A stretch of DNA of 64,000 nucleotides from Escherichia coli (GCF_003334765.1 NZ_QOWT01000002.1); one strand, 5' to 3'; positions 10,120 through 63,070 are shown, counted from the first letter of the stretch. Numbers and translations: made by a program. Notes: generated by a model not told the origin, from the sequence alone.

Positions 10120-10977
10120 ATGAAATACATTGGAGCGCACGTTAGTGCTGCTGGCGGTCTGGCAAATGCCGCAATTCGCGCCGCCGAAATCGACGCAACC
10201 GCGTTTGCCTTGTTCACCAAAAACCAACGTCAGTGGCGTGCCGCACCGCTCACGACGCAAACCATCGATGAATTCAAAGCCGCCTGTGAAAAATATCACT
10301 ACACATCGGCGCAAATTCTTCCCCACGACAGTTATCTGATTAACCTCGGACATCCGGTCACTGAAGCTCTGGAAAAATCGCGCGATGCCTTTATAGATGA
10401 AATGCAGCGTTGCGAACAGCTGGGGCTTTCTTTGCTCAACTTCCACCCTGGCAGCCATCTGATGCAGATTTCAGAAGAGGATTGCCTTGCGCGTATTGCC
10501 GAATCCATCAACATTGCGCTGGATAAAACTCAAGGTGTGACAGCGGTGATAGAAAACACCGCCGGTCAGGGCAGTAACTTAGGGTTTAAATTCGAACATC
10601 TCGCGGCGATTATCGACGGCGTGGAAGATAAATCCCGCGTCGGCGTCTGCATTGATACCTGCCATGCTTTCGCTGCCGGGTATGATTTGCGTACTCCAGC
10701 CGAATGCGAGAAAACATTCGCGGATTTTGCCCGTACTGTCGGCTTTAAGTATCTGCGCGGGATGCACCTTAACGATGCGAAAAGCACCTTTGGCAGCCGC
10801 GTTGACCGCCATCATAGCCTCGGTGAAGGCAATATCGGTCATGATGCGTTCCGCTGGATCATGCAGGACGACCGTTTCGACGGCATTCCGCTGATCCTCG
10901 AAACCATCAACCCGGATATCTGGGCAGAAGAGATCGCCTGGCTGAAAGCGCAACAAACTGAAAAAGCGGTAGCCTGA
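10120..10977 (+). CDS. nfo: Endonuclease IV (AP endonuclease), 285 aa
   Basis: ORF track 285 aa, recognised Nfo sequence. Confidence 0.95.
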
Positions 10978-10979
10978 AG

Positions 10980-45669: not shown

Positions 45670-48261
45670 TCAGAACGTCCAGACCACACCCGCCTGAGTA
45701 TTCCACGGCGATTCTACCCCTGCGCCATTGCCATAGCTGACTGACAAATGACCGCTTAACGTCGGGGTAAACGATGACCTTATACCAGCCTGATAAACGC
45801 CACTGGTTCCAGCCACATCATTATTAAATTTGCCATCGTCATTAACTTTCACCTGGTTAGAATCGGCGTATTCCTGACGCACGGCCGCTTTCAGCCAGGG
45901 TTCCAGCGTCGTACCGTTTTGCAGGTCCATGTGATAGCTTACCGCCGTTCCCGCTTCAGCGCGTAATATCCGGGTATTTCCCACATCCGCGCGCATGCCG
46001 TTTGATAACGTGTAGTCCTGACCATCTGTGGTAAAGCCGGTAAAGGCCAGATAGGGTCTAACACTCCACAATCCGTCAACCCAACGGAACCCGCTCTCAA
46101 CATGAGCACCCGCGCCGTTACTATTGTAATCGCCAAACGCTGTTGCCCCATTACTCATCTTGCCATGGATGGTGTTGGCAAAACGGTCAACTTTCACCAC
46201 CCCATCAACATAGGCACCGTTCTGATGCTCCCAACCGGCATAAGCCCCCAGGGTATAGCTATCGATATTACCTTTGCCGCCGCGATCAAAACCAATATCA
46301 GAATGAGAGTAACCAAAGATCAAGCCGCGAATTGTACTGCTTTCTTCACGGGAGAAACGGCTATCGATACCGAGCGTCAGGCCCGTCAATGTTTGCTCAA
46401 AACCAGCTCCCGCATCAGTGGTCACGTTGTTGCGGGTGTTAATTGCCGAACTCCACATCGCCGTATCGTAACTAACGCCTTTTACGCTACCAAGACGCTC
46501 ACGCACGGTGTCCAGTTCTGCATCAAATACCAGCGGTTGTGCGGCCGCCATATTCAGCACATCAGTGGTTGAAGGGGTAATTTGCGCGCGATTCTCTGCC
46601 AGACTCCAGCTATGGTTGCCATTATCCAGCAAGGTATATTCATACGTACCGATATCAACAACGCCTCCGGCATTGCCCAACGTAAATGCAGCATCACCGC
46701 CGCCCGTTGTTACCAGTGTAAGGCTATCTCCTGCTGCCGGGCTGGCACCGGTGTCCGTCACGAATATTTTGAAATCACCTGTTGCCTGACCGGTGACGTT
46801 GAGCTGATCGCTCTGATGATTAGCCATATCGGTACGCATATAAAAATTGCCGTTTCCCGACAGGGTATTGGTGGTCAACGTAATGAAATTTTCCGCACTT
46901 GCCGTCACTGATGAACGAGTCACTGGCTCATCCATCATAATCACATTTGCGTCAGACATCGCAAGGTTGGCTAAGTTGAGGAGGGTGTTTTGGTTCGTCG
47001 TAGTGATATCGGCAATGATGGTCCATACGCTATTTTCGAGCGAAACGTCCGCTTTGCTGGTATCCACGGCACCATGCGTTCTAAAAGAAGCGCCCTCAGA
47101 AACCACTACCTTACCCACCAACATTGCGGGTGCATAATTTATTTGCGGCTTCATGACCTCAAGAATGCCATCATTCCCTCTGACTGAAACGTTAACCATT
47201 GTGCCAGCCCAGACGTTAGCGCGGCCATTGTTGATAACCATATTTTCAGAGATGGCTTTTGAGGAATACGTGATACTTCCATTCTGATATGATCGACCGA
47301 GATCATATACCGCATTTGCCTGCACTTTCGTACCAGTATCCTTTCCCAGCGATTGCATAGTGGCATGCTTATCAAGGATAGTATCAATGGCCTGCGTGTC
47401 CTCCATAACAATGAGCCCGGAACCATCATCCAGTTCATAATTTTTTGACACACCATCTTTTATACTAAATTGGCCTTTACTGTTTGGACCACTCACTTCC
47501 AGCGCATTCGTTGAGACAATTAATTTTCCGCCTGCTTTTTTATCAACGCCAGTTACAGTCCCGCCATCCATAACCTCCAGTAAGCCGCCACTATCTACAG
47601 TGGTATTATAAGCGAAGTCATTTTCTTCAACTCGCAAACTTCCGCCGTTTTCCAACAACATATTATTAGCAATACCATTCTTGATATCGAACTGACCGAG
47701 ACGGTTTGTTCCGAATACCTCCATGGCCCGCGTGGTTGTTTTAATAGCACCGCCTGCTTTCTGATCTACCGCAAATGCAAATCCCCCCTCTTTAACCTCC
47801 AGTAGTCCTCCCTTTTCGATAGCGACAAAGACGGCCCCCCCATCTTTTTCAACGATTAAGCGCCCGCCTTTAATCGTGGTATCATTCGCTGCGCCATAAA
47901 CCTGTAGCACACCATTATTGAGCGTAGTCTGGTTTGCCGCGCCACCCATTTGAACAATTTGATAACCGTCATTTAATACTGAGTATTCTGCGGCGCCATT
48001 CATTTCAATGTACTGATACCCTCCGTTAATTTCAGTATTATTACTTACACCAAATTCTTTTATATGCTGTTCTCCGCCAGGATTGATTTTCGTATTATTG
48101 GCGGTCCCATAAACCAGCTGGATATCTTTTTCCAGGACAACACCATCAACTGTCTCACCATACTCAACAGTTGATGCCAATGCTATGGGTGAATATAACG
48201 CTGTAGCCACCAGAACAGATATTGCGGAACGACAAAGAGAAACAGAACCAGATTGATGCAT
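45670..48261 (-). CDS. yejO: Autotransporter (type Va) adhesin-like protein YejO, 863 aa, apparently intact
   Basis: ORF track 863 aa; N-terminal signal peptide, repetitive passenger domain, C-terminal beta-barrel ending ...AGVVWTF; AT-rich upstream region. Confidence 0.85.
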   Translation of the reverse strand: MHQSGSVSLCRSAISVLVATALYSPIALASTVEYGETVDGVVLEKDIQLVYGTANNTKINPGGEQHIKEFGVSNNTEINGGYQYIEMNGAAEYSVLNDGYQIVQMGGAANQTTLNNGVLQVYGAANDTTIKGGRLIVEKDGGAVFVAIEKGGLLEVKEGGFAFAVDQKAGGAIKTTTRAMEVFGTNRLGQFDIKNGIANNMLLENGGSLRVEENDFAYNTTVDSGGLLEVMDGGTVTGVDKKAGGKLIVSTNALEVSGPNSKGQFSIKDGVSKNYELDDGSGLIVMEDTQAIDTILDKHATMQSLGKDTGTKVQANAVYDLGRSYQNGSITYSSKAISENMVINNGRANVWAGTMVNVSVRGNDGILEVMKPQINYAPAMLVGKVVVSEGASFRTHGAVDTSKADVSLENSVWTIIADITTTNQNTLLNLANLAMSDANVIMMDEPVTRSSVTASAENFITLTTNTLSGNGNFYMRTDMANHQSDQLNVTGQATGDFKIFVTDTGASPAAGDSLTLVTTGGGDAAFTLGNAGGVVDIGTYEYTLLDNGNHSWSLAENRAQITPSTTDVLNMAAAQPLVFDAELDTVRERLGSVKGVSYDTAMWSSAINTRNNVTTDAGAGFEQTLTGLTLGIDSRFSREESSTIRGLIFGYSHSDIGFDRGGKGNIDSYTLGAYAGWEHQNGAYVDGVVKVDRFANTIHGKMSNGATAFGDYNSNGAGAHVESGFRWVDGLWSVRPYLAFTGFTTDGQDYTLSNGMRADVGNTRILRAEAGTAVSYHMDLQNGTTLEPWLKAAVRQEYADSNQVKVNDDGKFNNDVAGTSGVYQAGIRSSFTPTLSGHLSVSYGNGAGVESPWNTQAGVVWTF

Positions 48262-48580
48262 TGAGCTTTCATCCTATGAAATTAATTGCTGTTAAAAGCA
48301 TTGGGTACAGAAAATACCCATAGCTCCATACCCGGAGTCAGTTTTTAAAAACTGTTTAAAGAAATGCACAAGTATTGTGATTGATTTTTTAGTTGTTTTT
48401 CTTGATGAGAAGCTGATGCAAAATTCCGTCTTTATAATGAAAATGATGCCAAAGCGAACGACAAGGTTGTAGTTTTCACTACATGTCCATACATAAAATG
48501 GGGTAACATTCACGCGCCTGGTAGCGTTACCAACGCTACGCTCAAACATAATGATTCTAATAAAACCTCAGGAGACTACT

Positions 48581-49228
48581 ATGCCTGAAGCAACGCCTTT
48601 TCAGGTGATGATTGTGGATGATCATCCACTTATGCGACGCGGTGTTCGTCAGTTACTGGAGCTTGATCCTGGCTTTGAAGTGGTCGCCGAAGCGGGCGAC
48701 GGCGCGAGCGCTATCGATCTGGCGAATAGACTGGATATCGACGTGATCTTGCTGGATCTCAATATGAAAGGTATGAGTGGCCTGGATACTCTCAATGCCT
48801 TGCGCAGGGATGGCGTTACCGCGCAAATTATTATCCTGACCGTATCCGATGCCTCCAGCGATGTCTTTGCGCTGATAGACGCAGGCGCAGACGGTTATCT
48901 GTTGAAAGACAGCGACCCGGAAGTATTGCTGGAAGCGATTCGTGCCGGAGCGAAAGGCAGCAAAGTCTTTAGCGAACGCGTCAATCAGTACTTACGTGAA
49001 CGTGAAATGTTTGGCGCGGAAGAAGATCCCTTCAGCGTGCTGACGGAGCGCGAGCTGGATGTTCTGCACGAGCTGGCACAGGGGCTGTCAAATAAACAGA
49101 TTGCCTCGGTGTTGAATATTTCCGAGCAGACAGTAAAAGTACATATTCGCAATCTGCTGCGTAAACTCAATGTCCGCTCACGCGTGGCGGCCACCATTCT
49201 GTTCCTGCAACAACGCGGGGCACAATAA
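48581..49228 (+). CDS. narP: Nitrate/nitrite response regulator NarP (NarL/FixJ family), 215 aa; track ORF begins 10 codons upstream
   Basis: Receiver domain (MIVDDHPLMRRG) plus LuxR-type HTH; RBS aggag 7 nt upstream of the ATG at 48581. Confidence 0.93.
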   Translation: MPEATPFQVMIVDDHPLMRRGVRQLLELDPGFEVVAEAGDGASAIDLANRLDIDVILLDLNMKGMSGLDTLNALRRDGVTAQIIILTVSDASSDVFALIDAGADGYLLKDSDPEVLLEAIRAGAKGSKVFSERVNQYLREREMFGAEEDPFSVLTERELDVLHELAQGLSNKQIASVLNISEQTVKVHIRNLLRKLNVRSRVAATILFLQQRGAQ

Positions 49229-49232
49229 AAAT

Positions 49233-49257
49233 AGCCCGATGGATTTATCATCGGGCT
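49233..49257. terminator. Hairpin (GCCCGATG..CATCGGGC) just after the narP stop; T-run on the minus strand, so likely the distal terminator of the nap-ccm transcript
   Basis: Inverted repeat seen in sequence; paired with a similar hairpin at 49410-49441. Confidence 0.5.
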
Positions 49258-49280
49258 GAGATTTATGACAAACGCAAAAC

Positions 49281-49380
49281 TGCCTGATGCGCTACGCTTA
49301 TCAGGCCTACGTGGATCGATCAATTTATTGAATTTACACAATTTTGTAGGCCGGATAAGGCGTTCACGCCGCATCCGACA
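49281..49380. repeat. REP pair (BIME) between convergent narP and ccmH
   Basis: tgcctgatgcgctacgcttatcaggcctac and gtaggccggataaggcgttcacgccgcatccgaca. Confidence 0.85.
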
Positions 49381-49409
49381 TAAACTAAGCGCACTTTGTC
49401 AACAGTCTA

Positions 49410-49441
49410 GCCCGATGGCATCACCATCGGGCCTCTTTTTA
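49410..49441 (+). terminator. Hairpin GCCCGATGG..CCATCGGGC followed by CTCTTTTTATTT on the plus strand; likely narP terminator, overlapping the ccmH stop
   Basis: Seen in sequence. Confidence 0.6.
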
Positions 49442-50491
49442 TTTACTCTCCTGCGGCGACAAATGTTGCATCGCCTGCGCGATACTACGTTCAATCACCG
49501 CACGGCGAGTATCGTTGGCAGGTAAGAGTTTCAACATCATCTCCCACGCGGCAACGGCTTCGCCAAATCGCTGCTGCTCAAAGGCATTAAACGCATACAT
49601 GCTTAGCACACGGATATTGCTATGGTCCGTTCTCACCAGCTGACGTAGCAGTTCACCGCCGAGGCGGTTGTCGTTGGGATCAGATGAACGAGTCAACGCT
49701 TCAGCGTATCCCAGTGCAGCATCACTGTTTTTCGGATCGAGGCGATACGCAGTGGCGTATGCATCGGTGGCGATACTGGCGTTACCCAGCGCCATGCCAA
49801 CGCGGCCCAACATAATCCAGCCTTCTATATCTCCCGGATTTTTTTGCAGTTGAGTACGCATCCCCAGCGCAAGACGCGACATCTCTTCTTCGTTGAGCGG
49901 ATCGGCTTTCGGATCCAGCGCCCTGTCCAGCAACGCCGGAGCCTGTGCCGTGGCCTGCTGCCAGATTTTCACCTGCTGATAATTGCCAGTCTGGTAGTAG
50001 CTGACGCCAGCCACAATTAACGCCACCACAATACCCGGCAGATAAACAACATATCCGGCACGCTTACCTTCCGGCACGCTTTGTTCAGGAAACGCTTCCG
50101 GCACCACGCGTACCCGACGCCGCGAGCGGGCGTATATGACCCAACCGCCAATGCCAATAGCCACTACTGGCAGCACCCACAGCAGCACGGTCAGCGGCGT
50201 TAACGGCGGATCGTAAGTGACGAAGTTGCCGTAACGCGCCACCATATAATCGACAATCTCTTTTTTACTTTTACCTTCCTGCATCAGTTCATACACTTTC
50301 TGACGCAGGTCGGTGGCAATCATCGAGTTGGAATCGGCAATGCTGTTGTTCTGGCATTTCGGGCAGCGCAGTTCTTCAGTGAGCTGACGGAACTGTTGTT
50401 CCTGTGCTTCATCTTTAAACTGCAACACATCGATGGTCGCCAGCGCTGAGCCGGAGATCATCAGCATCAGCACGCCCAATAAAAACCTCAT
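49439..50491 (-). CDS. ccmH: Cytochrome c maturation protein CcmH (thiol-disulfide / TPR-like), 350 aa
   Basis: ORF track 350 aa; LRCPKCQNNSIADS motif. Confidence 0.93.
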   Translation of the reverse strand: MRFLLGVLMLMISGSALATIDVLQFKDEAQEQQFRQLTEELRCPKCQNNSIADSNSMIATDLRQKVYELMQEGKSKKEIVDYMVARYGNFVTYDPPLTPLTVLLWVLPVVAIGIGGWVIYARSRRRVRVVPEAFPEQSVPEGKRAGYVVYLPGIVVALIVAGVSYYQTGNYQQVKIWQQATAQAPALLDRALDPKADPLNEEEMSRLALGMRTQLQKNPGDIEGWIMLGRVGMALGNASIATDAYATAYRLDPKNSDAALGYAEALTRSSDPNDNRLGGELLRQLVRTDHSNIRVLSMYAFNAFEQQRFGEAVAAWEMMLKLLPANDTRRAVIERSIAQAMQHLSPQESK

Positions 50492-51045
50492 TGTGCGGCC
50501 TCCTTACTGTATTTCTCCCACAGCGGCTTGATCTCTTCTTCCCAGACGCGAGGATTCAGATCGCCCGCATGGCGATAGCGAATGATGCCGTTGCCGTCAA
50601 TAAGAAACGTTTCTGGCGCGCCATAGACACCGAGATCCAGCCCTAACATGCCATCGCCATCAAACAGGCTTAGCGCGTAAGGATTGCCCAGCTCTTTCAG
50701 CCAGCTGATTGCCTTCTGGCGATCGTCTTTATAGTTCATGCCGACCACGCGGATGCCCTGCGCAGAAAGCTGATTCAGATATTGATGTTCCGCACGGCAG
50801 GTCGGACACCAGGTCGCCCAGACGTTAAGCAGTACTGGTTTGCCCTGAGTCAGCACATCCGCCTGATAAAACTGCCCCGGATTGTCCAGTGATTCGAGAC
50901 GAAACTTCGGCACAGGCTTGCCAATGAGCGCCGATTCCAGATTGGTCGGATCATCCCCTTCGGCATTACGCGCCAGCTGCCACAGCAGCGCCGCGGCAAT
51001 CGCCAGGAAGATAATCAACGGAATTAACAATACTTTGCGCTTCAT
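50488..51045 (-). CDS. ccmG: Thiol:disulfide interchange protein CcmG/DsbE, 185 aa
   Basis: ORF track 185 aa; thioredoxin WCPTC motif. Confidence 0.94.
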   Translation of the reverse strand: MKRKVLLIPLIIFLAIAAALLWQLARNAEGDDPTNLESALIGKPVPKFRLESLDNPGQFYQADVLTQGKPVLLNVWATWCPTCRAEHQYLNQLSAQGIRVVGMNYKDDRQKAISWLKELGNPYALSLFDGDGMLGLDLGVYGAPETFLIDGNGIIRYRHAGDLNPRVWEEEIKPLWEKYSKEAAQ

Positions 51046-52985
51046 ACGGCCTCCGGCGCAGTTTTTTGCGGACTCACGCGCTTACGATAGCGAGGATCAA
51101 ACAGACACAGCAGTCCGCCCAACGCCATCATCAGCCCGCCCGCCCAAATCCAGCGAACAAATGGTTTGTAGTAAAGACGCACGGCCCACGCGCCGTTTTC
51201 CAGCTCTTCACCGAGGGCCGCGTACAGGTCACGCGTGATGCCGCCGTCAATTGCCGCTTCGGTCATCATCGACCCGGCAGTGTTGTAATAACGTTTTTCC
51301 GCATACAGCACCGTTTCCGGCTTGCCATCGCGCGTTACGCCGATAGTCGCCACACCGCCACGCCAGTTCGGGCCAGTCACCTCTTTGACATCACGGAAGG
51401 TGAAGCGATATTCATGAATATCGACGCTATCGCCGGACTTCATGCGCACATCACGCTCAACGCTATAGTTCTGGCTAAAGGCAATGCCAACAATTGTCAC
51501 TGCCAGCCCAAGGTGAGCCGCCACCATCCCCCAATAACTGAAGGTGGTTTTCGTGCCGCGTGAAATACGTAGCGCAGCTTCCGCAATTGCCAGCACCGCA
51601 ATCCAGCAGGCCATTGCCAGGCCGAGCACCGTCATCGCCACAACTTTGCTTTCGAACAGCCACGGCAACAGCAGCGACAGCACCAGCGTAGAGATGAAGG
51701 CGATAATCAATAAATTGCGGATCTTACGCGGGCGATCCCGCCCCCAGCGCACCAGAGGACCGACACCAAGCAGTAGCGCAAACGGCACCATCAGCCAGGT
51801 AAACATGGTGTTGAAGAACGGTTCGCCAATCGAAATACTGCCCAGTCCCAGTTGCTTATGCACCAACGGCAGCAGCGTCCCCAGCAACACCACCAGCATC
51901 GCAGCGACCAGCAAAACATTGTTCGCTAACAGCAAAGATTCCCGCGACCACAGCGCATTGTTTACGCGTGAGCGAACTTTGTGTCCACGCGCGGCAAACA
52001 GCAGCAGCGAACCGCCAATCACCAGCACCATAAAGGCGAGGATAAACATACCGCGCGCCGGATCAGACGCAAACGCGTGTACCGATACCAGCACGCCGGA
52101 ACGCACGAGGAAAGTCCCCAACAGACACAACGAGAAGGCACTGATTGCCAGCAGTAATGTCCACGCTTTGAAGCTGGCGCGTTGTTCAGTGACCGCCAGT
52201 GAGTGCATCAGCGCAGTCCCCACCAGCCACGGCATAAACGAGGCGTTTTCTACCGGATCCCAGAACCACCAGCCACCCCAGCCGAGTTCGTAATAGGCCC
52301 ATGCGGAACCGAGCACGATGCCGAGCGTCAGGAAGATCCACGCTGCCAGCGTCCACGGACGAGTAAAACGCGCATAAGTGCTGTCCAGACGCCCGCTCAG
52401 CAAAGAAGCAATGGCAAAAGCAAACGCCACCGAGAAACCCACGTACCCCATATAAAGCAGAGGCGGATGGAAGATCAGCCCCGGATCCTGCAATAGCGGG
52501 TTAAGATCGCGACCTTCAATCGGGAAGTTCGGCAACGTGCGAGAGAACGGGTTAGAGGTAAAGAGAATGAACAGCAAAAAGCCGACACTGACCATCCCCA
52601 TTATCGCCAGTACACGGGCCACAATATCCAGCGGAATACGCTGACTAAAAATCGCCACCGCAAAGGTCCAGCCGCTCATCAGCAGCACCCACAGCAGTAG
52701 CGAGCCTTCATGCGCGCCCCAGGTAGCCGCCACGCGATACCACACCGGAAGCTGGGTATTGGAGTTGCTGGCAACATAGGTGACGGTGAAGTCGTTGACC
52801 ACGAAAGCATTGACCAGCACCAGAAATGCGCCAGCCACAGACATAAACAGCAGCCAGGCAAACAAGCGGGAAGACGCCATCATGCGCGCATCTCCGCGCG
52901 CCACGCCCCATAGCGGATACACGGACAGCAGCAGCGCAATTCCCAGCGCCAGGCACAGCAGTCCGTTACCAATTTCTGGCATCAT
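51042..52985 (-). CDS. ccmF: Cytochrome c heme lyase subunit CcmF, 647 aa
   Basis: ORF track 647 aa; polytopic membrane protein. Confidence 0.94.
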
Positions 52986-53461
52986 GATGCTGGGTCCTTA
53001 TAAACACTCGCCGGGCGACGGTGGTTAGCTTCCATCGCTTTCTCAACTTCTGGCGGCGTATAGTTTTCATCGTGTTTCGCCAGCACTTCTTTCGCGAGGA
53101 TATGATTGCCTTTTTCCAGTTCGCCCTGCACCACAACGCCCTGCCCTTCACGGAACAGATCCGGCAAAATGCCTTCGTAAGAGACATCCACTGAGCCTTC
53201 AGCATCGTAAATGGTGAAGGTCACTTTCAGCGAATTGGGATCGCGCTGCACACTACCCGGCATCACCATCCCGCCAACGCGCAGACGCTGACCGACTTCC
53301 GGCATTTGCTGAGTTTCACGCTTGCCGTAGAGAATTTCCCCCGGCGTATAAAAGAGATCGATATTCGAGCGCAGCGCATATAGCACCAGACCGATAGTCA
53401 GCGCCAGCCCTGCCAACACGGCACAGGCAATCCACAAGCGGTTTTTACGGCGAATATTCAT
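52982..53461 (-). CDS. ccmE: Heme chaperone CcmE, 159 aa
   Basis: ORF track 159 aa. Confidence 0.94.
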
Positions 53462-53667
53462 GCAGCCTCCTGCTGTTGCGCAGCACGTAAACGCGCCTCA
53501 CGCGCCCGCTGTTGCGCCACGCCACGCAGAATTGCGCGATGTTGCATCACCGAGTGCACGACCAAAACCACCAGCGGAATAACGGTCATCACCACCGCCA
53601 GCCAGACAAAAAAGGCGTAACCGCCCATTGCGAAAAATTCATTCCAGGAAGCAAATGCAGGGGTCAT
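53458..53667 (-). CDS. ccmD: Heme exporter protein CcmD, 69 aa
   Basis: ORF track 69 aa; 4-nt overlaps on both sides. Confidence 0.9.
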
Positions 53668-54401
53668 TTACGGCCTCTTTTCAGTATCAGTTCACTCACC
53701 CACGGACGGCGTTTTTCCATCAGCAAAATCAAATTACGCATCCGCATCAGCGTCAGCGTGGCAGACAGGAGCAGGAAGCCAAAAATCGACCAGCGCAGCG
53801 GCGAACGCATCGCCGGATCGATACTTTGCTGCATCCGCGTTGATCCCTGATGCAGGGTGTTCCACCACTCCACGGAGTAATGAATAATCGGCAGATTCAC
53901 CACGCCAATCAGCACCAGGATACCTGCCGCACGGCCCGCCAGACGGCGGTCGTCGAAGGCGTGCCACAGGGCAATCACACCCACATACAAAAACAGCAGC
54001 ACCAGTTCAGAAGTCAGACGTGCATCCCATACCCACCAGGTGCCCCACATCGGTTTTCCCCATGCAGAGCCGGTAACCAGGGCAATAAAGGTAAACACGG
54101 CACCAATGGGGGCCATCGCCGCCACCGCCAGGTTGGCCATTTTCATCTGCCAGACAAGGCCAATAAACGCTGCCACTGCCATTGATGCATAAATGCCCAT
54201 CGACCAGATCGCCGCAGGCACATGCAGGTAGATAATGCGGTAGCTATTTCCCTGCTGATAATCAGCCGGAGCAAAGCCGAATCCCCAGATCCAGCCGACG
54301 GTAAGCACGACCACACTGGCAATTGCCAGCCACGGTATAAACCAGCCACAGATTTGATACAGCCGTGGTGGGATCGCCAGTTGATGCAGTGTTTTCCACA
54401 T
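53664..54401 (-). CDS. ccmC: Heme exporter protein CcmC, 245 aa from MWKTLHQLAIPPR...; track ORF extends 8 codons upstream
   Basis: WGxxWxWD tryptophan-rich motif (WGTWWVWDARL). Confidence 0.92.
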   Translation of the reverse strand: MWKTLHQLAIPPRLYQICGWFIPWLAIASVVVLTVGWIWGFGFAPADYQQGNSYRIIYLHVPAAIWSMGIYASMAVAAFIGLVWQMKMANLAVAAMAPIGAVFTFIALVTGSAWGKPMWGTWWVWDARLTSELVLLFLYVGVIALWHAFDDRRLAGRAAGILVLIGVVNLPIIHYSVEWWNTLHQGSTRMQQSIDPAMRSPLRWSIFGFLLLSATLTLMRMRNLILLMEKRRPWVSELILKRGRK

Positions 54402-54442
54402 AGTTTCGATACCAGACTCGAACAAAAATCAGTAATCCAGCG

Positions 54443-55105
54443 TTATTGAATGCTGATTCGTAACGCTGCCGCCGTCGCAAAAGGACTTAATGTCGCGGTG
54501 CCTGCCAGCAACGCGCCTAAAATTGCCAGATACCCGTCAACGGGCAAATGCATAGAAGCCGCGTCCATCGCGGCGGTGGCAAAGATGAGTAATGGGATAG
54601 TCAGCGGTAACACCAGTATGCTGAGCAGCACACCACCGCGCTTAAGTCCCACTGTCAGCGCCACGCCCGGTGCACCGAGAAAGCCAAGCGTAGGCGTTCC
54701 CAGCAGCAGCGTCAGCGCCATCACTTGCCAGCCATAAACATCCATTCCCAGTAGCATTGCTACCAGTGGCGAAAGGATGAGTAACGGCAGACCGGTTACC
54801 ATCCAGTGCGCCATCACCTTCGCCAGCACAACGGCGGGCAAGGGTAACGGCAACAACATCAATTGTTCAAGACTGCCGTCCTGCAAATCGTCACGGAACA
54901 GTCGTTCCAGCGCCAGCAAGGATGAAAGCAGCGCAGCAACCCAGATAATGCCCGGTGCAATACGCGCCAGCAGTTGCGGCTCCGGACCGATACTGAGCGG
55001 AAAAAGGGTAATTACAATCAGGAAGAACCACAGCGGGTTGGCGATTTCGGCGCTATGGCGAAACGCTACACGCAGCTCAAGACGGAAAATGCGCCAGAAC
55101 ATCAT
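54443..55105 (-). CDS. ccmB: Heme exporter permease CcmB, 220 aa
   Basis: ORF track 220 aa. Confidence 0.93.
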
Positions 55106-55725
55106 GCGGCCCTCGTTTGCGTCAGTGAAATGCGGCGAATTTTACTTTCAGCAACGTTGAGCGGCTGGTGGGTAGTCAGAATCACAATCCCCCCCTGCTC
55201 CGTATGCTGCGCCATACGCTGGGTCAGACGATCGACACCGTTAACGTCAATCGCGGTAAAAGGCTCGTCGAGGATCCATAACGTGGCACGGGTCAGCCAC
55301 AGACGCGCTAAAGCGACGCGGCGTTGTTGCCCGGCCGAGAGCTGATTTACAGGAATATCTTCGAATCCGGCAAGCCCGGCCTGCGCCAGGGCTTCCAGAC
55401 ATTGTGCGGTATCGCCATCGCGATGATAAAAGTGCAGATTTTCTAACGCCGTCAGCCGGGTTTTGATCCCCGGCTGATGGCCTATCCATAACAGGTTTTG
55501 ATGGTAGCTGTCGCGTACCTGATGCAAGGGCTGCCCTTGCCAGAGAACCTCGCCTGCGTCAGGGCGAGACAACCCCGTCAGCAAACGGAGAAGCGTTGTC
55601 TTCCCCGCGCCGTTGCTACCGGTGATTTGTACCCACTCTCCTGCGTTCAGCGTAAATGACAAGCCACTAAATAAGGTTCGTTCATCCCGCTCACAAAGTA
55701 ACTCTCTGGCTTCAAGCATACCCAC
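55102..55725 (-). CDS. ccmA: Heme exporter ATPase CcmA, 207 aa
   Basis: ORF track 207 aa; Walker [10 protein letters not shown]. Confidence 0.93.
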
Positions 55726-55737
55726 GCAATAACCCTG

Positions 55738-56340
55738 TTAAAAACCTGGCTCGACTTCACGCATATCGGGCAGCTTGTGCGCTATCCCTTTATGGCAATC
55801 AATACAGGTTTGCCCATCTTTCACCGCCTGGTCATGCATCTTCGCGGCAACCGATTTCTGGGCGGTTGTATCCATATACTCGAAGTTGTGACAGTTACGG
55901 CACTCCTGCGAGTTATTGTCCTTCATGCGCCGCCACTCATTCTGTGCCATCGTCAGACGATGAGCTTCAAATTTCTGCGGCGTGTCAATAACGCCAAAAA
56001 TTTTACCATACAGCTCTTTACTTGCTTTGAGCTTGCGTATCATCTTCGGCACAAACTCGTGCGGAACGTGACAATCCGGACAGGTCGCACGGACGCCGCT
56101 ACGGTTGTTGTAGTGCACGGAATCCATGTATTCCTGATACACCGTGTTGCGCATTTCGTGGCAGCTAATGCAGAACTCTTCGGTATTGGCTTTTTCCATC
56201 CCGGTGTTAAAGCCACCCCAGAAGACGATGCCGCCAACAAAACCGATCAACAGCAGCGTCCCCAGCGCCAGACGGCTGGGGGTACGCCACCATTTCCACA
56301 GGCGCTTAATCAGACCAGGCTTACGGTCAGAATTTCCCAT
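55738..56340 (-). CDS. napC: Membrane-anchored tetraheme cytochrome c NapC, 200 aa
   Basis: ORF track 200 aa; four CxxCH motifs. Confidence 0.94.
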   Translation of the reverse strand: MGNSDRKPGLIKRLWKWWRTPSRLALGTLLLIGFVGGIVFWGGFNTGMEKANTEEFCISCHEMRNTVYQEYMDSVHYNNRSGVRATCPDCHVPHEFVPKMIRKLKASKELYGKIFGVIDTPQKFEAHRLTMAQNEWRRMKDNNSQECRNCHNFEYMDTTAQKSVAAKMHDQAVKDGQTCIDCHKGIAHKLPDMREVEPGF

Positions 56341-56349
56341 AATAACCTC

Positions 56350-56799
56350 TTATTTCCCGTAACCTTTTGATGGGGTAAAGGTATTCCCCACGATTGGCGC
56401 GGTATCGGCCTGCGGTACGTGACATTGCAGACAGAAATAACGACGCGGAGCCACTTCCGCGCCCACTTTGCCGTCGCTGTCCATAAAGTGAGTAGGACTG
56501 ATACGCGGCGCGCCAGTGGTGCGATAGCTTTCGACACCGTGGCACTGCAAGCAGCGATTGGTATTGGTCGTTACCTGATAACCTTCAACGCTATGCGGGA
56601 TCATTGGCGGCTGATTCACATAGTTCAGCGGCATCCGATCCTGCTCTTTTGGCATCCGAATGGCCCCTTCCTGTGTCCCGGATACTTCCGGCGACTGGCT
56701 AAAATCGACGCCATTAGCCGCCCAAACCGCGCCGCTTACCACCAGGGCCAGCATCGCCGTCCATTGACACAGCGCTTTCTTCAGGTCATGGCTTTTCAT
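56350..56799 (-). CDS. napB: Diheme cytochrome c NapB, 149 aa from MKSHDLKK...; track ORF extends 7 codons upstream
   Basis: Two CxxCH motifs (CLQCH x2), signal peptide; 4-nt overlap with the napH stop. Confidence 0.93.
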   Translation of the reverse strand: MKSHDLKKALCQWTAMLALVVSGAVWAANGVDFSQSPEVSGTQEGAIRMPKEQDRMPLNYVNQPPMIPHSVEGYQVTTNTNRCLQCHGVESYRTTGAPRISPTHFMDSDGKVGAEVAPRRYFCLQCHVPQADTAPIVGNTFTPSKGYGK

Positions 56800-57659
56800 G
56801 ATTTCGCTCCCGAACTCCATCGTGTAGTTATTGTAAATACATCCTCAGAACAGACATCCACGCAGCGACCGCACGTCATGCAATCGCGGCTGGTGACCTG
56901 CACCGGGCTTTGTTCATCCAGCACCGGGGCACGTAGCACATGCGGTTCCGGGCAAACATGAAAACAATCCATACAGCGGTTACATTTCTGCCGATCGGTG
57001 GCCGCAACGGTAATCACACCTTTGCTACCCAGCACGCCATACAGCGCGCCAACCGGACAAATGTGCCCGCACCAGCCGTGTTCAACGACCAGTAGATCAA
57101 ATAAAAACAGCGCGAGAATAAGCAGCGCGCCGCTGCCGAAGCCCATTACCAGGCTACGCCCCATCAGAGAAACGGGGTTGATCCATTCCCAAATGAGCGT
57201 GCCAGTTAAGGCTGATCCCACCAGAATGACCACCAACAGCACGTAGCGAATGTGGCGAGGGATCGTCGCAGACTGATTGAGGTCAAAGCGCCTGCGTAAC
57301 CAGTTCGCTAAGTCGGTAATCGGGTTCAGCGGGCAGACCCAGCTGCAAAATAATCGCTTTCCCGCCAGGGCGTAGAGCACGGTGATAATCACCGCACCGG
57401 TCAACGCCACCGTGGCAGGCAGATGACCACTGGCAAGACTTTGCAGCGTCATCAGCGGATCGGTCAGCGGAACGGTGTCGAATAACAGGCTACTGCTGTA
57501 GTTGCCGTGCAAGATCCACACACCAAACCATGGACCGCTCAAAAACATCCCCAGCACGAAGAACTGACAAAGGCGACGTAACACCAGCCAACGGTGACTG
57601 CGCCACCAGCCTTTTTTCTCCAGCGCCTCGCGCCCGGCGTCACGTTTACGATTTGCCAT
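56796..57659 (-). CDS. napH: Membrane ferredoxin-type protein NapH, 287 aa
   Basis: ORF track 287 aa; TM helices plus C-terminal 4Fe-4S Cys clusters. Confidence 0.93.
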
Positions 57660-58341
57660 TGTTCCCCTCCAGCCAGCCGAAGCGGTAATGGTGACCTAAC
57701 TCCCCTTTCGCCAGTGACAGCGGTAACACCTTGATTGCCGGTTGTTCCAGCACGCATACTTTTTCGCACTTACCGCAACCGGTACAGGCGTCGCTGTGAA
57801 CCGTCGGCAGAAAGCGGGCGTGCTTACCGGTACGCGTGTTGCGCTCCAGCTCCAGGGTGATGGCCTCATCAATTTTCGGGCATTCGCGATAACAAACATC
57901 GCAGCGCAGCCCCTGAAAGTTGAGACAGTTTTCCTGGTCCACCAGTACCGCCAGCCCCATCCGCGCGTCGTCGATCGATTCAATCTCACGATCCAGCGCA
58001 CCGCTTGGGCACACTTTGGCGCACGGAATGTCCTCACACATTTCGCAAGGAATATCCCGTGCGACAAAATATGGCGTGCCCGCCGACAGACCAGAGGCCA
58101 GCGTCGCCAGTTTTAAGGTGTCGTAAGGGCAAGCCTGAACACACTGACCGCAACGCACACAGGCACTGGCAAAGGCGTTCTCGTTTATGGCTCCGGGCGG
58201 GCGCAACCGCACGCCAGATGCGCGTGCGGTTTGCTGTTGTAACCCCAGCGCCACACCCACGGCAGCCAGCCCGCCTGCTGTGCGAACGACATCGCGCAGA
58301 AAGCGGCGGCGACCATTTTGAGGTTTCGCTGACCGGGACAT
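57646..58341 (-). CDS. napG: Periplasmic ferredoxin-type protein NapG, 231 aa, twin-arginine signal
   Basis: ORF track 231 aa; RRRFLR Tat motif; multiple CxxCxxCxxxCP clusters. Confidence 0.93.
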
Positions 58342-58347
58342 AATGGC

Positions 58348-60834
58348 TTACACCTTCTCCAGTTTGACCGCGCACTTCTTGAAGTCCGTCTCTTTCGAGA
58401 GCGGATCGGTCGCATCCAGCGTCAGTTTGTTAACCAACTGTGCGGCGTCGAAGAACGGCATGTACACCAGGCCCTGTGGCGGACGGTTACGACCGCGCGT
58501 TTCAACAATCGAGATCACTTCGCCACGGCGAGAAACCACTTTCACTTTGTCGCCACGGCGCAGATCGCGCGCTTTCGCATCCAGCGGGTGAATAAACAGG
58601 ACCGCTTCCGGGAAGGCGCGGTGCAGTTCTGGTACACGGCGAGTCATACTGCCGGTGTGCCAGTGCTCCAGAACGCGTCCGGTAGAGAGCCACAGGTCGT
58701 ACTCTTCATCCGGTGCTTCCGCCGCCGGTTCGAATGGCAGTGCGAAGATCACCGCTTTGCCATCCGGTTTACCGTAGAACTTATAGCCTTCGCCCGCTTT
58801 CACGTACGGGTCGTTACCTTCGCTGTAACGCCACTGCGTTTCTTTACCGTTCACCACCGGCCAGCGCAGACCGCGCGCTTTGTGGTAGTCATCGAACGGT
58901 GCCAGATCGTGACCGTGACCGCGACCAAACCATGCGTACTCTTCGAACAGCCCTTTTTGCAGATAGAAGCCCAGCTCGCGGGATTCATCGTTCAGCTGAT
59001 CTTCCGCCAGTTCGGATACCGGGAATTTGCTCACTTCCGGTGTGGCATACAGCACTTCGTACAGCGTTTTGCCACGCAGTTCCGGTTTCTTCGCCAGCAG
59101 ATCTTCCGGCCATACTTCTTCAGTTTTGAAGCGGCGGGAGAACTGGACTAACTGCCAGAGATCCGATTTCGCTTCGCCCGGTGCCTGTACCTGTTGACGC
59201 CAGAACTGAGTACGGCGTTCGGCGTTACCGTAAGCGCCCTCTTTCTCTACCCACATTGCGGTCGGCAGGATCAAGTCGGCGGCCAGCGCACTGACTGTCG
59301 GATACGGATCGGAGACGATGATGAAGTTGCGCGGATCGCGCCAGCCCGGCATACGCTCTTCATTGATGTTCGGCCCGGCCTGCATGTTGTTGGTACACAT
59401 GGTCCAGTAAACATTCAGTTTGCCGTCTTTCAGCGCACGGTCTTGTGCCACCGCGTGCAGACCGATTTTCGCCGGAATGGTGCCGCTCGGGATATTCCAC
59501 TTCTTCTCGCAGATATCACGGTGTTTCTCGTTGGTCACCACCATGTCCGCAGGCAGACGGTGAGCAAAGGTGCCCACTTCACGCGCAGTACCACACGCAG
59601 AAGGTTGCCCGGTCAGGGAGAACGGACCGCAACCCGGCTGGGAAATTTTGCCGGTCAGCAGGTGCAGGTTGTAGACCAGGTTGTTAGCCCACACGCCACG
59701 AGTATGCTGGTTGAAGCCCATCGTCCAGTAGGAGATGACTTTCTTGTTCGGATCGGCATACAGCTGCGCCAGTTGTTCTAACTGGTCTTTCGGCACGCCG
59801 GTCATTTCGGCAGTTTTTTCCAGCGTATACTCGGCAACGAAGGCTTTGTAATCTTCAAAGCTCATCGGTTCGGAGGCGTCAGAACCCGGATTCTTCGCTG
59901 CTTTTTCCAGCGGATGGGTCGGACGTAAACCGTAGCCGATGTCCGTCGCCCCTTTGCGCAGGTTAACGTGCTTGCTGAAGAAGTCCTGATTTATCGCATT
60001 GTTTTGAATGATATAGTTGGCGATGTAGTTCAGGATCACCAGGTCAGATTGCGGCGTAAAGATGATGCCGTTATCCGCCAGCTCGAAGCTACGATGCTGG
60101 TAGGTAGAAAGCACCGCCACGGTGACGTTCTGGTTAGAGAGACGACGGTTAGTGATGCGCGACCAGAGGATCGGGTGCATTTCCGCCATGTTTGCGCCCC
60201 ACAGCACAAACGCGTCAGCCTGCTCGATGTCGTCATAGCAGCCCATCGGCTCATCCATACCAAAGGTACGCATAAAGCCAACTACTGCCGACGCCATACA
60301 GTGACGCGCGTTCGGGTCGATGTTGTTCGAACGGAAGCCCGCTTTAAACAGCTTGGACGCGGCATAACCTTCCCAGATAGTCCACTGACCAGAACCGAAC
60401 ATACCGATCGATTCCGGCCCTTTTTCTTTCAGGGCGGTTTTGAATTTCTCTTCCATCACATCGAAGGCCTGATCCCAGGTGATTGGGGTAAATTCGCCTT
60501 CTTTGTCATATTTACCGTTTTTCATACGCAGCAGCGGCTGCGTCAAACGGTCTTTACCGTACATGATTTTGGGCAGGAAATAGCCCTTAATGCAGTTCAG
60601 GCCACGGTTAACCGGTGCGTCCGGGTCGCCCTGACAGGCCACCACACGTCCCTGCTGCGTTCCGACCAGAACGCCGCAACCAGTACCGCAGAAACGGCAC
60701 GGCGCTTTATCCCATTTGATGGCTTCCTGCTGACCAACAACGGCGCGGGCAACGCCCGGCACGCTGAGACCGGCAGCCGCCGCAGCGGCCGCAACGGCGT
60801 TAGCTTTCATAAAGCTACGACGACTGAGTTTCAT
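58348..60834 (-). CDS. napA: Periplasmic nitrate reductase catalytic subunit NapA (molybdopterin), 828 aa
   Basis: ORF track 828 aa; Tat signal SRRSFMK; N-terminal Cys cluster CRFCGTGC. Confidence 0.96.
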
Positions 60835-61094
60835 GGTGTTTCCTCACCTTGCTCTTCCTGCTGGTGATAAACCAGCGACACCGCCAGCACGCCCTCTACG
60901 TTGCGTACTGACTCAATGGTTTGGATCAGCGTTTCGCTGTCTTCTGCTTCCACCACCACAATCAACTGACCGCTCGGCGCGTCGCTGACAGCAACTTCAC
61001 AGCCGGGAAAGGCGTTCAGTTGGGTGCTGATGTCTGAAATTCGTTCGCTTTTGGCCTGCACGACCAGGCTGCAAACTTGCCAGTTAGTGTGCAT
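60831..61094 (-). CDS. napD: NapA chaperone NapD, 87 aa
   Basis: ORF track 87 aa; overlaps napA start by 4 nt. Confidence 0.92.
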
Positions 61095-61578
61095 GGAGAT
61101 ACTCCGCAGTTATGGCTGATACCGGACAGCTGGCTGCACATGCTCCACATCCGTTGCAAAGTTGGCTATTAAGTTGCGGCTGGTAGATCCCGGAGAGCGT
61201 CGGGCGAAAGATAATTGCCATTGGCTCACAGCTATCCTGACAGCGGCGGCATTCAACTGACTGATACGCCAGGCACGCGTCCCCGATGGTGAACTGCAAA
61301 TCCCAGGCCCTGGTGTGGCGCGGAGAAAATAGCGATTCGGGGCAAGCCTGCGCGCAGGCGTAACAGAAGCTGCACTCGTTATTTTTGAAATTAACGCTCG
61401 GATAGCCGCCCGCGCCGCGTTGCAGAATGTTGTTTTCACAAGCATTAATACAGGCGTCGCAGCGGGTGCAATGGGTCAGAAAATGAGATTCATCACCGGA
61501 CCAGGGCGGACGGATACCGTTACTGGCTTTGCGCCAGCGACCAGTGAGTATGCCCCGACGGGATGCATCAATCTTCAC
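61084..61578 (-). CDS. napF: Ferredoxin-type protein NapF, 164 aa
   Basis: ORF track 164 aa; several CxxCxxCxxxCP motifs. Confidence 0.93.
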   Translation of the reverse strand: MKIDASRRGILTGRWRKASNGIRPPWSGDESHFLTHCTRCDACINACENNILQRGAGGYPSVNFKNNECSFCYACAQACPESLFSPRHTRAWDLQFTIGDACLAYQSVECRRCQDSCEPMAIIFRPTLSGIYQPQLNSQLCNGCGACAASCPVSAITAEYLHAH

Positions 61579-61686
61579 ATTGACCTTCCATCATTAACGC
61601 GCTCTGAAAATTGAGAGCGACCAAATAAACCGCATAATTAATAAGCCATTTTTATAGCCGCTAAGATATTAAAGGATGTGTCAAAG

Positions 61687-61851
61687 ATGCATACCCCGAT
61701 CGGGGTAAAACCTGTAGCAGGATCAAAAGAGTGGCGGGAAGCGTGGCAAAAACGGGCTTTTGCTCACATTTCAAATGGTTATAAATATATTTATATAGCG
61801 ATTGATTCACCAGAGATATTTCTGCTGGTTTGCTCTCTCATTAGAATTTAA
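61687..61851 (+). CDS. yojO: Small 54-aa ORF (MHTPIGVKPVAGSKEWREAWQKRAFAHISNGYKYIYIAIDSPEIFLLVCSLIRI) overlapping the napF control region; I recall a small annotated ORF (yojO) at this location in K-12, but expression and function are doubtful
   Basis: My own translation, below the ORF-track length cut-off; start codon lies inside the NarP palindrome; no obvious RBS. Confidence 0.3.
   Translation: MHTPIGVKPVAGSKEWREAWQKRAFAHISNGYKYIYIAIDSPEIFLLVCSLIRI
61692..61707. promoter_or_regulatory. NarP/NarL 7-2-7 binding site TACCCCG-AT-CGGGGTA in the napF promoter
   Basis: Perfect 16-bp palindrome matching the NarL/NarP heptamer consensus TACYYMT in inverted-pair arrangement, about 115-130 bp upstream of the napF start. 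Confidence 0.8.
61714..61727 (-). promoter_or_regulatory. Probable FNR site (TTGATcctgCTACA on the minus strand) about 21 bp upstream of the NarP site
   Basis: One perfect TTGAT half-site and one degenerate half-site; spacing from the NarP site is consistent with the known napF promoter architecture. Confidence 0.5.
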
Positions 61852-61985
61852 CACTAAAAGAGCAGGTAAAATTGTCTGAATGTTCTTTAAGTTATTCATA
61901 AAGCAAATTAATAAATCTGATGAATATGTTAACCTTCAGCGACATCATCGGTGAAAACCTATAAATGAAGAAGGAAAGCAAAAAA

Positions 61986-62474
61986 ATGAAGACCATTCTA
62001 CCTGCAGTATTGTTTGCCGCTTTCGCTACCACTTCCGCCTGGGCGGCAGAAAGCGTCCAGCCACTGGAAAAAATCGCGCCTTATCCACAAGCTGAAAAAG
62101 GGATGAAGCGTCAGGTGATTCAGTTAACCCCGCAAGAAGATGAATCTACCCTGAAAGTAGAACTGTTAATCGGTCAGACGCTGGAAGTCGATTGCAATTT
62201 GCATCGTCTCGGCGGGAAGCTGGAAAACAAAACGCTGGAAGGCTGGGGCTATGATTATTATGTCTTTGATAAAGTCAGTTCCCCGGTTTCAACGATGATG
62301 GCCTGCCCGGATGGCAAGAAAGAGAAGAAATTTGTCACCGCGTATCTGGGCGATGCTGGAATGCTGCGTTACAACAGCAAGCTGCCGATCGTGGTGTATA
62401 CGCCAGACAATGTAGATGTGAAGTACCGCGTCTGGAAGGCGGAAGAGAAAATTGACAACGCGGTAGTTCGCTAA
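61986..62474 (+). CDS. eco: Ecotin (periplasmic serine protease inhibitor), 162 aa from [10 protein letters not shown]...; track ORF begins 7 codons upstream
   Basis: Signal peptide; recognised ecotin sequence. Confidence 0.94.
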
Positions 62475-62476
62475 AC

Positions 62477-63070
62477 TGCCGTGAAGTGCGGCACCCCGTA
62501 GGTCAGACAAGGCGGTCACGCCGCATCCGACATCCAACGCCCGAGCCGGTTGCCTGATGCGACGCTGGCGCGTCTTATCAGGCCTACACCGCTGTGAAGT
62601 GCTCCACCCCGTAGGTCGGATAAGGCGGTTACGCCGCATCCGACATCTAACGCCCAAGCCGGTTGCCTGATGCGACGCTGGCGCGTCTTATCAGGCCTAC
62701 ACCGCTGTGAAGTGCTCCACCCCGTAGGTTGGATAAGGCGGTTACGCCGCATCCGACATCCAACGTCCGAGCCGGTTGCCTGATGCGACGCTGGCGCGTC
62801 TTATCAGGCCTACACCGCTGTGAAGTGCTCCACCCCGTAGGTCGGATAAGGCGGTTACGCCGCATCCGACATCTAACGCCCAAGCCGGTTGCCTGATGCG
62901 ACGCTGGCGCGTCTTATCAGGCCTACACCGCTGTGAAGTGCTCCACCCCGTAGGTTGGATAAGGCGGTTACGCCGCATCCAACATCTAACGCCCGAGCCG
63001 GTTGCCTGATGCGACGCTGGCGCGTCTTATCAGCATACGCCACATCCGGCATACCATGCCGGATGTGGCG
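62477..63070. repeat. Large BIME: five tandem 113-bp units, each a pair of inverted REP palindromes, ending in a perfect 15-bp-stem hairpin (63038-63070) adjacent to the mqo stop
   Basis: tgcctgatgcgacgctggcgcgtcttatcaggcctac recurs at 62551, 62664, 62777, 62890 and 63003 (period 113 bp), alternating with gtaggtcggataaggcggttacgccgcatccgaca-type REPs. Confidence 0.9.

Follow-up and report, generated by a model that had tools for sequence, protein, structure and literature searches.

The window analysed here is a 64,000-nt stretch of Escherichia coli DNA, and its positions 49439-61578 are the nap-ccm locus of E. coli K-12, in which seven periplasmic nitrate reductase genes (napFDAGHBC) are followed by eight cytochrome c maturation genes (ccmABCDEFGH). 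We consider it highly probable that this known operon is translated as three coupled blocks, napF-D-A-G-H-B, ccmA-B and ccmC-D-E-F-G-H, and is served by a second promoter embedded in coding sequence. The arrangement itself is ordinary and already documented, with nothing new in the operon as such.

Organization of the nap-ccm cluster and spacing of its genes

The cluster is identical to that of strain MG1655 (100% identity over 12,140 nt, megablast), which bears out the claim of a first-pass annotation that this is a known arrangement, and it is present at a coverage of at least 80% in 5418 of 5426 complete E. coli genomes (megablast). Comparison with the K-12 locus napFDAGHBC-ccmABCDEFGH (aeg-46.5, b2208-b2194) revealed the same locus, genes and junctions, with no difference; it is listed as an operon, either as napF--ccmH or under the full gene string, in PMC3946193 and PMC2634741. 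The RefSeq annotation contains 15 successive minus-strand coding sequences from napF to ccmH, with ccmG named dsbE, flanked by the convergent narP on one side and the divergent yojO/eco on the other, and the order found in the window is as annotated. When re-translated from the window, all 15 coding sequences stay in frame and contain one stop each, at the end, and 14 of the 15 products reach the curated NCBIfam cut-offs for the expected family (Table 1). CcmH gave merely a sub-threshold NrfF match in this search; Pfam assigned to it the domains PF03918 CcmH (residues 7-130, E=4e-50) and PF23914 TPR_CcmH_CycH (residues 173-330, E=2e-60). Annotation, re-translation and NCBIfam/Pfam families thereby agree on the gene identities, order and strand proposed in the first pass. 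The cytochrome c maturation System I is complete, with CcmA, B, C, D, E, F, G and H all encoded in the cluster (component list from PMC12285233). One E. coli record contains a second, plasmid-borne match to the cluster, of 60-80% identity, and in at least one E. coli genome the cluster has two places.

All overlap and gap sizes proposed in the first pass were reproduced from the window sequence: on one strand, ten of the 14 junctions overlap, eight of them by 4 nt and two by 11 and 14 nt, and the others are gaps of 6, 9, 12 and 41 nt. Each of the eight 4-nt overlaps has the sequence ATGA. The 24 same-strand adjacent gene pairs located elsewhere in the window served for comparison. Overlaps of 4 nt occur at 8 of the 14 cluster junctions and at none of these 24 pairs (Fisher P=6e-5), and overlaps of any size at 10 of 14 and 3 of 24, respectively (Fisher P=4e-4). 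Across the E. coli genome, no spacing is commoner than -4, and spacings between -8 and +6 account for 24% of the same-direction pairs (PMC10666635; negative values denote overlaps). The cluster is enriched in 4-nt overlaps, yet these overlaps are of a common kind.

Re-translation gives GTG as the start codon of napF and ccmA and ATG for the other 13 genes. A longer napB open reading frame from ATG 56820 is unsupported, the NF008609 model aligning from 1-149 to residues 1-149 of the 149-aa form; a longer ccmC frame from TTG 54425 is equally unsupported, the ATGTGGAAA start being invariant across genera and the sequence upstream of it variable. The single truly ambiguous start is that of ccmA, where the annotated GTG 55725 is followed two codons downstream by the in-frame ATG 55719. 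Related species have either GTG or ATG there, often not both, and the choice of ATG would make the napC/ccmA gap 18 nt instead of 12.

Work on native gene pairs of E. coli shows that termination-reinitiation requires the two genes to overlap or to be separated by very few nt (PMC10666635, PMC6728339). Reinitiation drops steeply with distance and is almost gone by about 20 nt (PMC10666635), and the class of pairs spaced by +9 to +12 is thought to initiate mostly independently (PMC10666635, PMC6728339). Taking as compatible with coupling a start at about -8 to +6 relative to the upstream stop (PMC10666635), nine of the 14 junctions are within range, namely the eight at -4 and napA/napG at +6. 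The overlaps napF/napD (-11) and napG/napH (-14) extend beyond this usual range, and napB/napC (+9), napC/ccmA (+12) and ccmB/ccmC (+41) are outside it. The first-pass annotation had inferred coupling throughout a single polycistronic unit; by the published distance rule, coupling is plausible within the three blocks named above and the chain would break at the +9, +12 and +41 junctions. The boundaries of the ccm blocks coincide with functional modules, which are CcmAB, the ATP-binding cassette (ABC) release complex, CcmCDE, devoted to haem delivery, and CcmFH, the synthetase (PMC12285233). Reporter work on five native ATGA pairs of E. coli detected coupling in four of them (PMC6728339). The coupled pairs, hyfHI, astDB, ydbH/ynbE as well as menDH, have the same ATGA overlap and a Shine-Dalgarno (SD) sequence inside the upstream gene; their coupling is proven by experiment, and no nap or ccm pair was in the tested set. 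A search of the literature found no coupling measurement for any nap or ccm gene pair.

We propose that a single mRNA of roughly 12.4 kb could be read from the napF promoter through all 15 genes. Termination-reinitiation would couple translation within each of the three blocks, and napC, ccmA and ccmC would be initiated mostly de novo. The entry points at ccmA and ccmC probably step translation down, placing Ccm below Nap, since ccmA has no SD sequence and that of ccmC is weak at best. Indeed, the SD energy at ccmA is at background under two anti-SD models, whichever start is used. At ccmC the weakness is clear with the 9-nt anti-SD and only moderate with the 13-nt tail, so that a weak or missing SD is claimed firmly only for ccmA. 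The strongest SD of the cluster is that of ccmH (-12.1 kcal/mol).

Table 1. Genes, junctions and other elements of the nap-ccm region (positions in the window)
Feature	Position	Strand	Basis
napF, ferredoxin-type protein, GTG start, 164 aa	61084..61578	minus	TIGR00402, 248 bits (cut-off 102)
napD, NapA chaperone, 87 aa	60831..61094	minus	NF007840, 168 bits (cut-off 113)
napA, catalytic molybdoenzyme subunit, 828 aa	58348..60834	minus	TIGR01706, 1654 bits (cut-off 931)
napG, ferredoxin-type protein, 231 aa	57646..58341	minus	NF007012, 416 bits (cut-off 269)
napH, quinol dehydrogenase ferredoxin subunit, 287 aa	56796..57659	minus	NF007013, 471 bits (cut-off 234)
napB, dihaem cytochrome c subunit, 149 aa	56350..56799	minus	NF008609, 328 bits (cut-off 230)
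napC, tetrahaem quinol dehydrogenase, 200 aa	55738..56340	minus	NF007906, 463 bits (cut-off 349)
ccmA, ABC ATPase, 207 aa from GTG	55102..55725	minus	NF010061, 333 bits (cut-off 195)
ccmB, ABC permease, 220 aa	54443..55105	minus	TIGR01190, 317 bits (cut-off 156)
ccmC, haem-handling membrane protein, 245 aa	53664..54401	minus	TIGR01191, 282 bits (cut-off 186)
ccmD, 69 aa	53458..53667	minus	TIGR03141, 67 bits (cut-off 26)
ccmE, haem chaperone, 159 aa	52982..53461	minus	NF009635, 322 bits (cut-off 264)
ccmF, haem lyase subunit, 647 aa	51042..52985	minus	TIGR00353, 1016 bits (cut-off 569)
ccmG (dsbE), periplasmic thioredoxin-like protein, 185 aa	50488..51045	minus	NF011941, 422 bits (cut-off 359)
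ccmH, fused CcmH-CcmI, 350 aa	49439..50491	minus	Pfam domains
napF/napD junction, overlap 11 nt		minus	window sequence
napD/napA junction, overlap 4 nt, ATGA		minus	window sequence
napA/napG junction, gap 6 nt		minus	window sequence
napG/napH junction, overlap 14 nt		minus	window sequence
napH/napB junction, overlap 4 nt, ATGA		minus	window sequence
napB/napC junction, gap 9 nt		minus	window sequence
napC/ccmA junction, gap 12 nt		minus	window sequence
ccmA/ccmB junction, overlap 4 nt, ATGA		minus	window sequence
ccmB/ccmC junction, gap 41 nt	54402..54442	minus	window sequence
ccmC/D, D/E, E/F, F/G and G/H junctions, overlap 4 nt each, ATGA		minus	window sequence
FNR-type site TTGATCCTGCTACA upstream of napF	61713-61726	minus	motif search
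NarL/NarP 7-2-7 palindrome TACCCCGATCGGGGTA, perfect, upstream of napF	61692-61707	minus	motif search
napD/napA block, napD codons 61-87 and napA codons 1-28	60751..60914	minus	synonymous excess
napH 3'/napB 5' block, napH codons ~226-287 and napB codons 1-14	56758..56981	minus	synonymous excess
Top sense-strand promoter-like site (predicted), inside napC, AAAGCA-17 nt-TAAAAT	56000..56028	minus	relaxed scan
ccmH-narP convergent spacer, two hairpins with REP/BIME-like palindromes between	49229-49438	minus	terminator scan, sequence

Junctions across genera and the ccmB/ccmC seam

The 15 genes were mapped onto 80 NapC-anchored loci from other species, taken with 10-kb flanks. In about 25 of these loci, belonging to Escherichia, Citrobacter, Leclercia, Intestinirhabdus, Silvania, Trabulsiella and an Enterobacter sp., ccmA follows napC as in the window. 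Within this fused clade, the nap spacings are near-invariant (-11, -4, +5/6, -14, -4, +9), the napC/ccmA spacing ranges from +3 to +20, ccmA/ccmB is at -4, and five further junctions from ccmC to ccmH are at -4. Odd larger values at some junctions (e.g. L009, L023, L025, L026) were attributed to the way starts were called, to a NapH C-terminus that differs or to frameshifts in the assembly. In L023 (Citrobacter koseri NCTC10786), several nap and ccm genes look broken or truncated, the napA, ccmC, ccmF and ccmH matches being partial, probably through assembly frameshifts and not biology.

The only length-variable junction in the fused clade is ccmB/ccmC, which measures 28-149 nt (L005, L009, L010, L015-L027 and L030). 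In a comparison of spacer sequences from 27 loci, its 3' end, of about 18 nt, is a conserved leader, GAGTCTGGTGACTGAACT-ATG, with the K-12 form GAGTCTGGTATCGAAACT. The extra length found in Citrobacter, Intestinirhabdus and an Enterobacter sp. consists of palindromes resembling repetitive extragenic palindromic (REP) sequences, inserted upstream of this leader, and the 41-nt spacer of E. coli is the minimal, REP-free form.

More distant genera differ in how the two gene sets are joined. Providencia (L014, L028, L029, L031, L034-L038, L043, L044; about 10600-11300 in each) has the same nap gene order, with nap junctions again at -11/-14/-4, and shares the -4 overlaps from ccmD/E to G/H; those from ccmC/D to F/G are likewise kept. 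There, on the other hand, napFDAGHBC is followed by ccmCDEFGH, with ccmA and ccmB absent both between napC and ccmC and within 10 kb. The Providencia napC-ccmC spacer (136-686 nt) carries a hairpin and then a conserved FNR-like box, TTGTG-N4-ATCAA, located 21 nt upstream of a -10-like hexamer TATTGT, a spacing that would fit a class II FNR promoter. Because of this hairpin and box, ccmC-H is probably a separate transcription unit in Providencia. In Pectobacterium and Samsonia (L062, L073, L076-L078, L080), nap and ccm are also neighbours and the ccm-internal spacings resemble those of E. coli (A/B -1, B/C +67/68, C/D to F/G -4), but ccm is placed just downstream of nap on the opposite strand; this convergent orientation makes nap-ccm co-transcription impossible there. 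CcmH and CcmI, fused in E. coli, are apparently encoded by separate genes in these genera (PMC3349551). No ccm gene was found after nap within the 10-kb flank in Yersinia, Serratia, Edwardsiella, Hafnia, Pantoea or Atlantibacter.

As judged from these loci, the -4 overlaps within ccmC-G are old and stable, and the 15-gene nap-ccm fusion is particular to one enterobacterial clade. The ccmB/ccmC junction is an old evolutionary seam: it accepts REP inserts in Citrobacter, has no ccmAB in front of it in Providencia and shows the same spacer in Pectobacterium.

Promoters, synonymous conservation and the 3' end

Upstream of napF, the centres of the FNR-type and NarL/NarP sites (Table 1) are 20 bp apart. 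The layout of the napF FNR and NarP sites reportedly described by Darwin et al. in 1998, -64.5/-44.5, has this same centre spacing. A chromatin immunoprecipitation sequencing peak of FNR at napF, together with co-activation by NarP, is cited in PMC3688515. A promoter-like motif TTGAGA-16 nt-CATAAT is also present at 61611-61638 on the plus strand, facing yojO and divergent from napF; PMC3946193 lists a constitutive promoter with these hexamers.

The first-pass annotation had sited a possible internal promoter in the 12-nt or the approximately 40-nt gap. For a sigma-70 promoter, some 35 nt must be available ahead of the transcription start, and a leader besides. Both gaps are too short and neither contains a promoter-like motif, so any internal promoter must be embedded in coding sequence, as the first pass itself conceded by proposing to look for it "inside napB-napC". 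A ccmA promoter is said to have been mapped inside napC by Tanapongpipat et al. in 1998. According to a secondary source, the promoter of the 'ccmA operon' is anaerobically induced, with regulation by FNR or ArcB/ArcA undetected (PMC1698476). We propose that ccm transcripts would also come from a second promoter lying within coding sequence ahead of ccmA, since other c-type cytochromes need Ccm while napF is off.

A scan for consensus sigma-70 promoters on the sense strand of the cluster returned no matches, and a relaxed scan of the minus strand from 49300 to 61800 found 0 sites scoring at least 9, compared with 6.2+-2.2 in mononucleotide shuffles. Relative to these shuffles, the cluster's sense strand is poor in promoter-like motifs. 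The top sense-strand site of the relaxed scan, situated inside napC, has an extended -10 (TG and one base before TAAAAT) and is a candidate for the reported ccmA promoter. A conserved promoter at the napC 3' end or ccmA 5' end was rejected, synonymous conservation being at baseline there; it is possible that the ccmA promoter is specific to E. coli, as opposed to conserved. Sequence alone cannot place the internal promoter.

Synonymous conservation was mapped on codon alignments of K-12 and 20 fused-clade loci. About 35% of third positions across the cluster are conserved at 85% or above. Peaks are found at the napD 3'/napA 5' junction (0.80, 1.00) and over the last 60 napH codons with the napB start (0.75-0.80), and further ones at both napG ends, the napC start and the ends of ccmC; the napC 3' end, the ccmA 5' end and the ccmD-H junctions are at baseline. 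The two main blocks were then assessed with one representative per genus against the cluster-wide baseline of 0.176 identical codons. Identical codons amount to 17 of 40 in napH 226-275 (P=2e-4), 14 of 21 in napD 61-87 (P=9e-7) and 11 of 24 in napA 1-28 (P=1e-3). Between K-12 and Salmonella arizonae, napH identity rises from 80% over codons 1-225 to 93% over codons 226-275. The napH/napB block is confined to the nap-ccm fusion clade and is gone in distant genera, whereas the napD/napA block persists there; the napD 3' end and the napA 5' end, with the twin-arginine signal peptide codons ATG AAA CTC AGT CGT CGT, are near-invariant in nucleotide sequence across Enterobacterales, synonymous positions included.

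RNA structure was rejected as the source of the constraint at the napH 3' end, the fold z of -1.09 lacking significance. As to a hidden overlapping open reading frame, alternative frames in the napH block are stop-free for 21-63 codons, which is uninformative in so short and conserved a stretch. The block includes only a -10-like hexamer TACAAT with a poor -35, and no clear promoter. It is possible, though doubtful, that the napH/napB block is an embedded regulatory element uncoupling napBC-ccm from the napF promoter and that the napD/napA block controls napA translation. Such an element could be an internal promoter, an operator, an RNA processing site or a translation-control site.

At the 3' end, the two hairpins of the ccmH-narP spacer, at 49410-49432 and 49233-49257, have the identical stem GCCCGATGG/CCATCGGGC, and palindromes resembling REP sequences or bacterial interspersed mosaic elements (BIMEs) lie between them. 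The hairpin at 49410-49432 has a T-run on the plus strand only. The one at 49233-49257 lies some 180 nt downstream of ccmH; on the minus strand it precedes ATTTTTATT and is likely the terminator of the nap-ccm transcript. Since the T-run of each hairpin is on the strand of the far gene, the 3' untranslated regions of nap-ccm and narP would overlap in antisense by about 200 nt. The two-hairpin arrangement is common to Escherichia albertii and another E. coli; in Leclercia, Silvania and Trabulsiella only about 18 nt separate the ccmH-side and narP-side stop codons. The spacer resembles a single bidirectional terminator that an insertion with REP sequences has split or duplicated. Inside the cluster, the terminator scan gave 22 terminator-like hairpins against 14.7+-4.4, no convincing excess. 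A terminator-like hairpin in napB, at 56442-56463 on the minus strand, has 8 pairs (6 G-C) followed by GTTATTTCTG, with unremarkable synonymous conservation.

Some other elements were observed in or near the cluster. According to Raghavan et al. 2012 (PMC3419515), napA belongs to a set of only 17 genes with an antisense RNA conserved in both E. coli and Salmonella; at 59990-60017 on the plus strand, TTTATC-16 nt-TATAGT is the top predicted promoter-like site antisense to napA and has an extended -10 TG. An Rfam scan of positions 48000-63000 found nothing inside the nap-ccm cluster. Its only hits, four tandem naRNA4 matches (RF02564, 64-76 bits), are located at 62501-62923 on the plus strand, between eco and mqo, and this array corresponds to repeats of the nucleoid-associated noncoding RNA/REP325 type. 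Just beyond narP, an IS5 transposase gene (~47146-48126) interrupts the yejO autotransporter pseudogene.

Alternative readings and significance

Several observations weigh against a cluster translated in coupled blocks and supplied by a second promoter. Both the co-transcription of the 15 genes and their coupling are what we infer. SD-like sequences upstream of 13 of the 15 starts would permit independent initiation too, bioBF, one of the five E. coli ATGA pairs tested, is uncoupled (PMC6728339), and the ccmD-ccmH junctions display no excess synonymous constraint, nothing beyond ATGA setting them apart. The promoter candidate within napC scores weakly, at 8.5 on the relaxed scale, and is unconserved at synonymous sites in other genera.

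The SD-like sequences, the bioBF exception and the lack of extra constraint at the ccmD-H junctions, together with the ease with which ATGA arises and the prevalence of -4 spacing in the E. coli genome (PMC10666635), would suit overlaps that are a by-product of compact operons, each gene being initiated independently via its own SD. We find this unlikely, because five successive ccm junctions are invariant at -4 in genera ranging from Escherichia to Providencia and Pectobacterium, whereas the one true spacer drifts freely in length, and because four of the five native ATGA pairs tested are coupled (PMC6728339). In addition, overlaps are enriched in genes for heteromeric complexes, of which Nap and Ccm are both examples (PMC10666635), and the cluster has far more -4 junctions than the neighbouring genes. 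The converse possibility, an unbroken chain in which ribosomes loaded at napF drive translation through all 15 genes to ccmH, could draw on the ten overlaps among 14 junctions, on three further gaps of 12 nt or less and on junction distances that, ccmB/ccmC excepted, are near-invariant across genera. It is nevertheless highly improbable, given that reinitiation is nearly lost at about 20 nt and that the +9 to +12 class is read as independent (PMC10666635). Moreover, the ccmB/ccmC gap of 41 nt varies from 28 to 149 nt in relatives and tolerates REP inserts, and in Providencia ccmC-H stands behind a hairpin and an FNR-like box with no ccmAB upstream. The variable gap and this Providencia arrangement imply that ccmC translation cannot generally depend on ccmB translation.

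It is also conceivable, if somewhat unlikely, that nap and ccm are abutting but separate transcription units, with ccm driven chiefly by one or more embedded promoters of its own and with only incidental read-through from napF. The adjacency without co-orientation in Pectobacterium and Samsonia, the many genera with no nap-ccm linkage inside the 10-kb flanks, the apparent terminator-like hairpin and FNR-like box between napC and ccmC in Providencia, and the 'ccmA operon' promoter cited in PMC1698476 all point that way. In E. coli, however, the napC-ccmA interval is just 12 nt long with no terminator-like hairpin, a spacing of 12-20 nt is kept across the fused clade, and no conserved promoter signal is visible at the napC 3' end; the 15 genes are handled as a single unit in databases and array papers (PMC3946193, PMC2634741).

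We thus favour one known operon with three coupled blocks and an embedded second promoter. As a textbook operon re-described, it is a finding of little weight in itself. The main use of the overlap data is as a check on the annotated starts, which are consistent, with ccmA as the sole ambiguous case. The comparative data slightly sharpen the build of the operon, which comprises three blocks of overlapping or near-abutting junctions and three non-overlapping joins, among them an old ccmB/ccmC seam that tolerates REP insertion and gene loss or relocation. Should the synonymous blocks turn out to be regulatory, the supply of Ccm to other cytochromes under napF repression would be explained, and this would constitute a modest, locus-specific advance.

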